From a virus: a stretch of 64,000 bases of DNA. Shown piece after piece: positions 60,922 to 61,510 of the stretch. The first letter of the stretch is position 1. Each line of letters opens with the position of its first letter. Position numbers and translations under genes: made by a program. The notes below the pieces were generated by a model that was given only the letters and a program-made list of their open reading frames with translations, was not told the DNA's origin and made no database searches. The stretch spans positions 25,051-89,050 of IMG/VR virus record IMGVR_UViG_3300020205_005279; one strand, 5' to 3'.

Positions 60922-61002
60922 TGCACGGAAGAGGACTTGAACCTCCATGCTGTTAAGCGGTAGCTTCTAAGGCTACTGTGTCTACCTTTCCACCACCCGT
61001 GC
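60922..61002 (-). tRNA. trnL: tRNA-Leu(TAG)
   Basis: GTAGC-CTTAGAA-GCTAC, long variable arm. Confidence 0.9.
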
Positions 61003-61455
61003 TAGAGGTGTTCTATTAGAGAACGTGGGCGTTTGAGAGTGGCAATTAGGGCATAAAAGCCTTAAATTGTCAACAGTGTTATTATAACATTGACCATCTA
61101 TATGGTCAACTTGTAGTCTTAAAAATTTACCGTTCCACTCGGAAGAAATGCCGCACTGTTCGCATTGTTCCCCGCTCTCTTGAACAAGAAGCCTATAAAT
61201 AACGCTTCTTTTACAGTTTTTACCTTTAGTTAGAACGTACTCTTGTAATGTAGGCCATTTGTTTCTCCCACCAAAATTTCTTATTTTGGCAGTATAATCA
61301 GGTCTATAGTTCGGAATCCACTTAGAAGTTCTGCGTCTAAGAGTGTCTGGTCGGCAATTTAACTCTAGACATAATTCTGTAGGAGTTTTGCTTCCAGATA
61401 GCAGACTATTTATTATATAGTCTTTTTTGTTGTCAATGTCCTTTCGCACTCTCAT
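60982..61455 (-). CDS. HNH homing endonuclease
   Basis: CEQCG...LQVDHIDG..NN...NLRLLCPNCHSQT; N-terminal HTH-like segment. Confidence 0.92.
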   Translation of the reverse strand: MRVRKDIDNKKDYIINSLLSGSKTPTELCLELNCRPDTLRRRTSKWIPNYRPDYTAKIRNFGGRNKWPTLQEYVLTKGKNCKRSVIYRLLVQESGEQCEQCGISSEWNGKFLRLQVDHIDGQCYNNTVDNLRLLCPNCHSQTPTFSNRTPLARVVER

Positions 61456-61489
61456 AATGGTAGACTTTATAGTCTATAAACTATTTAGT

Positions 61490-61510
61490 TACCAATTCCG
61501 CCATTTGCGC
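61490..61510 (-). pseudogene. Orphan 5' fragment of a tRNA-Leu-type gene
   Basis: GCGCAAA-TG-GCGGAATTGGTA (acceptor 5' strand plus D-arm) stops abruptly before the HNH leader. Confidence 0.7.

Follow-up and report, generated by a model that had tools for sequence, protein, structure and literature searches.

The window (the whole 64,000-nt stretch of DNA analysed here, part of an 89-kb virus record) contains a cluster of 16 tRNA genes, all on the same strand. Within the cluster, reading along the minus strand, tRNA-Met is followed by the isolated 5' end of a tRNA-Leu gene (hereafter the stub), a short leader, an ORF for an HNH endonuclease, an intact tRNA-Leu(TAG), into which the ORF reads, and tRNA-Val (Table 1). 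An earlier note on this DNA had described the stub, the hairpin, the ORF, the 21-nt overlap and the tRNA-Leu, and each of them is present on the minus strand where the note had placed it, including the hairpin that ends 5 nt before the ATG. The DNA comes from a freshwater metagenome, and among cultured phages its closest matches are Synechococcus phages; the phage that hosts the locus is a freshwater cyanomyovirus.

Table 1. Features of the HNH and tRNA-Leu locus (positions refer to the window)
Feature	Position	Strand	Description
tRNA-Met(CAT)	61513..61587	-	left neighbour; identified by ARAGORN, alignments and synteny
tRNA-Leu stub, GCGCAAATGGCGGAATTGGTA	61490..61510	-	21 nt; separated from tRNA-Met by a 2-nt spacer
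Stub content	tRNA-Leu positions 1-21		5' strand of the acceptor stem, 5' strand of the D-stem, D-loop through GGTA
Mobile unit	60920..61494	-	ends set by a near-identical copy found in other genomic surroundings (run X2)
Cassette leader	61456..61489	-	34 nt; predicted hairpin
Leader hairpin	61476-61471 (TAGACT), loop ATAA, 61466-61461 (AGTCTA)		next come CCATT and the ATG (61455)
HNH endonuclease ORF	60982..61455	-	157 aa; C-terminus ...LARVVER-stop
Candidate sigma-70-like promoter, TTGACC-17-TATAAT with TG	61081..61109	-	inside the HNH coding sequence, ~80 nt upstream of tRNA-Leu
Intact tRNA-Leu(TAG)	60922..61002	-	ARAGORN; Rfam tRNA, 52.3 bits
GTTTAAAG copy	60916-60909		in the spacer between tRNA-Leu and tRNA-Val
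tRNA-Val(TAC)	60828..60899	-	right neighbour; 22-nt spacer from tRNA-Leu; conserved right flank in HNH-less relatives

The ORF and the intact tRNA-Leu(TAG) share exactly 21 nt (61002-60982), which encode ARVVER and the TAG stop codon. The acceptor stem of this tRNA is formed by the strands GCACGGG and TCCGTGC, with G-U as the last pair and A as the discriminator base. On direct reading, neither the acceptor strand nor the D-stem strand of the stub is complementary to the 3' part of the intact tRNA, in agreement with the earlier proposal that the 3' strand belongs with the new 5' end rather than with the relic. The relic had also been described as breaking off in the D-loop close to where the stop codon of the nuclease falls, and the numbering agrees: the stub ends at position 21 of tRNA-Leu, and the ORF stops at nucleotide 21 of the intact tRNA.

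A group I intron or a split tRNA gene was considered as an explanation of this arrangement and rejected, since the Rfam search returned no intron family at E <= 0.1 and the stub is not complementary to the 3' half of the tRNA. At this threshold, the region in the window and six related loci gave tRNAs, two abiF RNA hits and, beyond these, sub-threshold chance matches only. An independent assembly of the same reads crosses 61401-61900 in one contig with 0 differences, and the junction between tRNA-Met, stub and leader is therefore not an artefact of scaffolding.

The nuclease and its relatives

The product of the ORF matches the Pfam HNH family (PF01844) with an E-value of 3.4e-6 (27.5 bits against a cut-off of 21.4) and phrog_10822 ('HNH endonuclease') with 5.7e-26. 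It consists of an N-terminal region resembling a helix-turn-helix and an HNH/zinc-ribbon domain. Residues C98, C101, H118, N126, N130, C135, C138 and H139 are invariant in nine homologues, T5 hegA included, and represent two CxxC zinc pairs, the catalytic His, conserved Asn residues and the terminal His of the HNH motif. The best solved structure by sequence is that of McrA, a weak match (E 0.023). The proteins P0001, P0004 and P0006 are 98%, 79% and 77% identical to it, respectively, and a 20-nt word specific for the HNH gene has a sole match in IMG/VR, the contig L122. Membership in the GIY-YIG Seg family (that of T4 SegB) was rejected, as HNH-type families alone were matched. By its sequence, the nuclease is probably a free-standing homing endonuclease, and it belongs to the T5 hegA/F-TflIV-like HNH family of tRNA clusters.

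The identity with T5 hegA/F-TflIV is 32% (tblastn 1e-11, residues 3-157), and the homology between the two proteins extends across the N-terminal region as well as the HNH/zinc domain. Like the gene in the window, hegA lies among tRNA genes, directly after a tRNA, and it has been placed among the free-standing homing or nicking endonucleases. It is longer, with 227 aa and an extra C-terminal region of ~70 aa, annotated in its record as a LuxR-type HTH, which the window protein does not have; its ORF stops short of any tRNA, whereas the ORF in the window runs into tRNA-Leu. The LuxR-type extension does not define the wider family, because the homologues in Erwinia phage Cronus and in IMG/VR also lack it. 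In Cronus, a T4-like phage, the HNH gene (35% identity at the protein level) is found 2 nt after tRNA-Leu(TAG) and 3 nt before tRNA-Tyr; there is no overlap between its ORF and the downstream tRNA, and its tRNA-Leu(TAG) is upstream of the gene, in contrast to the downstream position observed here.

T4 SegB is likewise encoded in a tRNA cluster and has been reported to cleave the tRNA genes of SegB-less relatives, to spread itself together with the flanking tRNAs and to drive the inheritance of the T4 tRNA region. It differs from the nuclease described here in being a GIY-YIG enzyme, which is reported to recognise a motif in the T-arm, and the accessible parts of the SegB accounts do not mention a stub of the target gene. 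Homing endonucleases of the HNH and GIY-YIG types that are known from phage tRNA clusters, where they target tRNA genes and spread neighbouring ones, include T5 F-TflI/II/IV, T4 SegB and the mycobacteriophage HNH genes. The locus in the window is a new case of this known type, in a freshwater cyanomyovirus, and extends the T5 tRNA-cluster HNH family to this group of phages.

Proposed control of nuclease expression

The leader is predicted to fold with an energy of -16.1 kcal/mol and a modest z-score of -2.3. In the predicted fold, the D-loop of the stub (UGGUAACU) pairs with AGU-CUACCA, and the paired region ends 3 nt before the AUG. Four of the five leaders of the relatives L005-L009 fold similarly (z -2.7 to -3.9), the exception being L009, which is no better than shuffled sequences (z 0.07). 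No covariation was found in the leader hairpin among 6 sequences, which are too alike.

The leader also contains the motif GTTTATAG (61481-61474), one mismatch away from GTTTAAAG, which is enriched in the window (16 copies versus 4.4 expected). The exact GTTTAAAG is found at the homologous place in the hairpin loop of the relative L180, and the AT-rich relatives have TATAAATA. The latter motif is not shared by the window, because it is present in the 64 kb as a single copy on the opposite strand (3.1 expected); a T4-type late promoter in the window leader was rejected on these grounds.

Judged from the predicted fold, the hairpin beside the start codon, placed around a promoter-like motif, probably restrains expression of the nuclease. 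[quoted passage not shown] According to the published scheme, only transcripts starting inside the hairpin would be translatable. The difference in the window is the origin of the 5' strand of the hairpin, which is the D-loop remnant of a destroyed tRNA gene.

A second restraint may act at the opposite end of the gene. RNase P cleavage at 61002/61003 would strip six codons and the stop codon from the nuclease message, and by analogy this probably also limits the enzyme. Removal of the stop by tRNA processing has been proposed before for the T5 F-Tfl genes and for segB, whose stop abuts tRNA-Arg and where maturation of the tRNA is suggested to cut the mRNA between the last codon and the stop.

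Empty sites, the mobile unit and the stub

Syntenic contigs were fetched via the neighbouring gene, which encodes a protein of 190 aa. The order Ile(tat)-Met(cat)-Leu(tag)-Val(tac), with the 190-aa gene next and without the HNH gene, is observed in at least 17 viral contigs, and two more HNH-less contigs show the order Ile-Leu(tag)-Val. In relatives, tRNA-Leu follows tRNA-Met at a distance of 0-3 nt in all contigs except L129. The four contigs closest to the window by the 190-aa protein (L156, L116, L117 and L118) are HNH-less; their tRNA-Leu(TAG) starts with GCGCAAGTGGCGGAATTGGTA-GACGCC, 2 nt after tRNA-Met, and is identical to the stub in 20 of 21 positions, with divergence from the window beginning immediately after GGTA, the end of the stub. 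The earlier suggestion that a resident tRNA-Leu had been interrupted or replaced is thus borne out, as the note had expected, by intact genes at the place of the stub in HNH-less relatives, with the same 2-nt spacing.

The presence and absence of the nuclease gene can be compared directly in one group of close relatives. L122, whose HNH protein is 86% identical to that of the window, carries the gene at the same site, and its twins L128 and L120 are HNH-less. These contigs are collinear with L122 over 1.7 kb on the left (94%) and 4.8 kb on the right (93%), and the site measures 527 nt in L122 versus 34 nt in L128, which constitutes a presence/absence polymorphism of the HNH gene at one site. 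In the single pair L122 and L128, tRNA-Met is identical in 54 of 75 positions and positions 1-45 of tRNA-Leu in 32 of 45, while for tRNA-Ile the identity is 92/93. The raised divergence beside the insertion is, in this one pair, consistent with co-conversion from a donor. The stub of L122 consists of AATGGTAGAC only.

The extent of the moving DNA is given by public assemblies compared with the window, of which X2, X4 and X5 are known as difference tables. The X2 contig (827 nt) contains 60920-61494 at 98.6% (8 differences), and both of its flanks are unlike those of the window; a mobile unit of ~575 bp is thereby delimited, which is made up of a TGGTA remnant, the leader, the nuclease gene and the complete tRNA-Leu. 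The nuclease gene has recently moved as one unit with the replacement tRNA-Leu. The near-identical unit in foreign flanks includes tRNA-Leu, and together with the presence/absence comparison of L122 with L128 and L120 it upholds the claim of the earlier note that the cassette carries its own replacement tRNA. The longer contigs X4 (31.8 kb) and X5 (91.5 kb) are ~96% identical to the window between 60922 and the far end of tRNA-Met, a stretch that in X5 extends to 61762; they share its left flank and differ from it below 60922. Both have 15 letters missing between 61495 and 61512, which makes their stub 15 nt shorter.

The exact 21-mer of the stub was searched in IMG/VR and the JGI metagenomes. 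It was found in one other IMG/VR contig, as positions 1-21 of a tRNA-Leu(CAA), in two bacterial tRNA-Leu(GAG) genes of the JGI metagenomes and in one further JGI fragment where ARAGORN calls no tRNA. The acceptor stems of the tRNA-Leu(CAA) and of both tRNA-Leu(GAG) genes are GCGCAAA/TTTGCGC. This search thus returned unrelated tRNA-Leu genes and no closer phage relative. In the BLAST comparison with the fetched loci, six Met-Leu pairs align with the window through tRNA-Met and stop exactly at 61490. A chance match is excluded for the stub by the recurrence of the 21-mer as the 5' end of tRNA-Leu genes and by the point at which the Met-Leu alignments stop. Its positions 8-21 match the invariant D-arm of the resident tRNA-Leu genes perfectly. 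Judging from these alignments, the stub is positions 1-21 of the former resident tRNA-Leu(TAG). In every relative, its last 5-8 nt (TTGGTA) also form the cassette's left end; therefore, the stub is a microhomology junction and not simply leftover sequence.

The short stub is common to L122, X4 and X5, and L122 is much more distant from the window than the other two. On the simplest reading of these sequences, the cassette itself ends on the left with the short D-loop remnant, and the extra 5' letters in the window would come from the resident gene, in a recent event; by parsimony, the form shared by L122 and X4/X5 is ancestral and the long form newly acquired. The same contigs can be read in the opposite direction. 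The block of tRNA-Met, stub, HNH and tRNA-Leu might have been inherited or imported whole, with the D-loop kept for the sake of the hairpin and the shorter stubs arising by later deletion. Such an origin would account for the D-loop remnant at the left end of every related cassette and agrees with the donor type of the tRNA-Met that adjoins the cassette in L122. As X4 and X5 share tRNA-Met and the sequence upstream of it with the window at ~96% and yet have the short stub, the long one could be ancestral and not a fresh footprint. We regard this origin as unlikely, given that a stub carried along as old neutral DNA would not be expected to retain a perfect D-arm at positions 8-21, that positions 1-21 as a whole follow the resident allele of the closest HNH-less relatives, down to the spacing from tRNA-Met, and that the distribution of the short form favours the long form as the new one.

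Probable replacement of tRNA-Leu and the wider pattern

The resident tRNA-Leu alleles have the form TGGCG(G/T)AATTGGTAG(A/C)CGC, and the HNH-linked alleles are TGGTGGAA(-)AGGTAGACAC or TGGTGTAATTGGTAGCCAC. In the D-arm of the incoming tRNA, a U-A pair at 11-24 takes the place of the C-G pair of the resident, and the D-loop has one base less; the anticodon stem also differs. Owing to the shorter D-loop, the D-loop TAG falls in frame and serves as the stop codon of the nuclease. The changed D-stem pair and the D-loop length are an obvious candidate, from the sequence comparison, for the basis of self-immunity. The 'new' type of tRNA-Leu body is also present without any HNH in L125 and L133, so that the HNH-linked body is a natural variant with putative resistance to the nuclease.

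The most probable reading, to which we assign a probability of about 0.75, is that the HNH-tRNA-Leu unit of ~575 bp, with its T5 hegA-like nuclease, replaced the resident tRNA-Leu by homing and left the stub behind. The breaks made by the nuclease would fall within or slightly past the D-arm of HNH-less tRNA-Leu genes; the target may also lie elsewhere in the cluster. According to this model, the original phage would have had the order tRNA-Met, resident tRNA-Leu(TAG), tRNA-Val, and upon co-infection with a cassette-bearing relative the resident tRNA-Leu would have been nicked or cut in or just beyond its D-arm. Repair would then have copied the donor leftwards, through the tRNA-Leu body, the nuclease gene and the leader, and the left side would have closed at the D-loop microhomology TTGGTA carried at the left end of the cassette. 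Such a closure would keep the 5' end of the recipient gene up to the break, leaving positions 1-21 as the stub, and the incoming tRNA-Leu would take over the lost function.

The tRNA arrays of phages change fast, for reasons that are partly understood, and the locus offers an unusually complete record of one replacement, with an empty site, a filled site, a moving unit with both of its ends and a footprint pointing to the D-arm of tRNA-Leu. All the relatives compared are uncultured contigs. The HNH protein is a candidate endonuclease that would nick or cut a long and conserved target in a tRNA gene.

The arrangement recurs in the closer relatives of the cassette. In L005-L010 (65-67% identity), L122 and L180 (72%), the ORF always reads into tRNA-Leu(TAG), in the same frame as in the window for L005-L010 and L122 and in a different frame for L180. 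Its stop codon is the D-loop TAG or a TAA that results from a G13T change. A TTGGTAGA-like D-loop remnant precedes the leader wherever upstream sequence exists (the L010 contig is cut at its 5' end), and in L005 the remnant is GGTAGACGC, the D-arm of resident tRNA-Leu genes.

A broader sample consisted of 80 IMG/VR loci, those with the best-matching relatives of the HNH protein; some of these loci are near-duplicates. Within 3 kb of the gene, tRNAs are found in 78 of the 80 homologous loci. The ORF ends 2-36 nt inside a downstream tRNA of the same strand in 29/80, and inside or at most 30 nt from such a tRNA in 44/80. The ORF of L082 does not overlap tRNA-Leu, as a stop codon intervenes, and this locus was left out of the overlap count. 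The upstream regions were scanned for stubs against 733 tRNAs; scoring each region against its own downstream tRNA alone misses the stub of the window. Stubs of 5' ends are found 30-56 nt before the ATG in L036, L064, L047, L029, L037/L039, L048, L068 and L082. In all cases with a downstream tRNA, the upstream stub is of the same isotype, which holds in Val and Leu lineages. The stub of L036 is identical in 20 of 22 positions to the tRNA-Val that its ORF enters, and L037 has a Val-like stub together with an ORF that appears to enter a Val-like tRNA not called by ARAGORN.

On a quick maximum-likelihood tree of the HNH proteins, the isotype of the downstream tRNA changes 14 times, compared with 24.7 times after shuffling (0 of 200 shuffles were as low), and the window HNH lies inside a fully supported Leu(TAG) clade. 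This clustering is partly expected from shared descent. The neighbours of the cassette vary among the contigs (Ala, Arg-tct, Arg-acg, Thr and Met). In L006 and L007, it is flanked by tRNA-Arg and tRNA-Gly, two genes that in phage S-SM2 lie side by side without an intervening tRNA-Leu; either some moves have therefore taken place without replacing a resident tRNA-Leu, or larger blocks have been swapped.

The last observations also bear on the possibility that the arrangement arose by illegitimate or tRNA-tRNA recombination in a fluid array, with tRNA-Leu as a hitch-hiker and not the cleavage target. Arrays of tRNA genes are prone to recombination, and the changing neighbours of the cassette and the absence of tRNA-Leu from the S-SM2 site are what such a process would leave. 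It would not explain why HNH lineages hold one tRNA isotype while their surroundings change, why same-isotype stubs recur in the Val and Leu lineages or why the boundaries of the unit coincide with landmarks of tRNA-Leu; moreover, free-standing phage homing endonucleases are reported to adjoin their target typically (SegB, SegE, SegF and SegG). We consider this explanation improbable.

Replacement by homing, as proposed for the window, may be one instance of a more general arrangement, which we put forward tentatively and at slightly less than even odds: a widespread module of isotype-specific HNH homing genes placed inside the 5' third of their target tRNA and accompanied by a complete replacement tRNA. 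As parts of this joint reading, the first 10-23 nt of the replacement tRNA may provide the last codons and the stop of the nuclease, and the stop may often be the conserved U8-A9-G10 or else a TAG or TAA in the D-loop. A hairpin placed around a late-promoter motif may conceal the start codon, with the D-loop of the destroyed gene as its 5' strand, and the ends of the 5' stubs (tRNA positions ~21-34) may mark the repair of the break. The general design so suggested combines an ORF stop inside the linked tRNA with a stub reused as a regulatory hairpin. If this is true, modules of this kind, in lineages for Leu, Val, Asn, Thr, Met and Gly, would rank among the chief causes of tRNA-gene turnover in phage arrays. 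Neither the recurrence of same-isotype stubs nor the reuse of the stub in a leader hairpin was found described in the searchable literature, the coverage of which is incomplete.

That the nuclease now works for the phage and not for itself, for instance by amplifying or exchanging tRNA genes against host defences that target tRNAs, would be compatible with homing and would fit both the tRNA that the cassette always brings and a 2026 paper on T-even SegB reporting that SegB-driven segmental amplification of tRNA loci helps a phage to evade a defence system, but it is very improbable in view of the single, unamplified HNH copy in the 89-kb record and the sporadic presence of the gene among close relatives, which fits a selfish element.

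A further feature of the nuclease gene is the candidate sigma-70-like promoter within it (Table 1), which agrees with the expected pattern in 11 of 12 positions according to the promoter scan. Its hexamers coincide with the conserved VDH and YNN codons of the HNH protein and persist in the relatives.

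Promoter-like sequences in the window and in the HNH gene

The motif GTTTAAAG is found in 16 copies in the window versus 4.4 expected (none of 100 shuffles contains as many as 16), and the T4-type TATAAATA is present as a single copy. GTTTAAAG is probably the promoter motif of this phage group, replacing TATAAATA. A near-consensus sigma-70-like promoter (see table) lies within the HNH coding sequence, ~80 nt 5' of the linked tRNA-Leu, and both of its hexamers are codons for conserved motifs of the HNH (VDH and YNN). The hexamers are kept, as TTGACC/TTGATC and TATAAT/TATGAT, in the viral contigs L005-L008 and L122, in which a related HNH also reads into tRNA-Leu(TAG). 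Transcription from this internal promoter could provide the tRNA-Leu without making the nuclease.

In L180, another contig of this kind (positions 1504-1956, minus strand, 72% identity), the HNH frame is displaced by one base in respect to the tRNA, and therefore the ORF extends ~49 nt into tRNA-Leu(TAG), with a TAA stop in the variable arm.

Coordinates of the features
Feature	Record	Position	Strand	Details
GTTTAAAG, two of 16 sites	window	60909-60916	-	
	window	48265-48272	+	
Sigma-70-like promoter	window	61081-61109	-	TTGACC-17-TGnTATAAT, 11/12 match
tRNA-Ile(tat)	L120	1447-1539		93 nt
	L122	2800-2892		93 nt
	L128	1546-1638		93 nt
tRNA-Leu(TAG), HNH-linked body, no HNH	L125	3138-3219		
	L133	3475-3559		
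Rfam abiF RNA motif	L006	2666-2702		51.8 bits (gathering score 37)
	L008	495-531		46.8 bits (gathering score 37)

tRNA genes with and without the nuclease

The tRNA-Leu(TAG) of the HNH-less contigs L125 and L133 shares the anticodon stem and variable arm with that of the window, and has the D-arm TGGTGGAA..GGTAGACAC. Either the cassette's tRNA has its native origin in these contigs, or the nuclease has been lost from their genomes. The tRNA-Ile(tat), ~20 nt above the usual length, is conserved in the HNH-plus L122 and in its HNH-less twins, L120 and L128. The tRNA directly 5' of the HNH in L122 (2896-2969) is Met-like, but its anticodon is CAC rather than CAT, and it was called as Val.

Possible tRNA remnants and abiF RNA motifs

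The ~170-nt stretch 5' of the tRNA-Met (positions 61597-61760 of the window, minus strand) shows an 89.6% match over 106 nt to phage S-SM2, spanning the final 19 nt of its tRNA-Gly(TCC) and the adjoining downstream spacer; 32 more nt match inside the same tRNA. No tRNA was called here by ARAGORN, and the corresponding place in relatives is occupied by tRNA-Ile(tat). This region may comprise a decayed tRNA-Gly and a conserved structured spacer.

The 21-mer of the tRNA-Leu 5' stub, followed by GCCACG, was also observed in a GC-rich bacterial metagenome contig (L183, reverse strand from 3266), where ARAGORN called no tRNA in the sequence beyond; it may be another tRNA-Leu 5' fragment, for example an integration-site remnant. 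The abiF RNA matches adjoin tRNA-Arg genes, directly 5', in two viral tRNA clusters.
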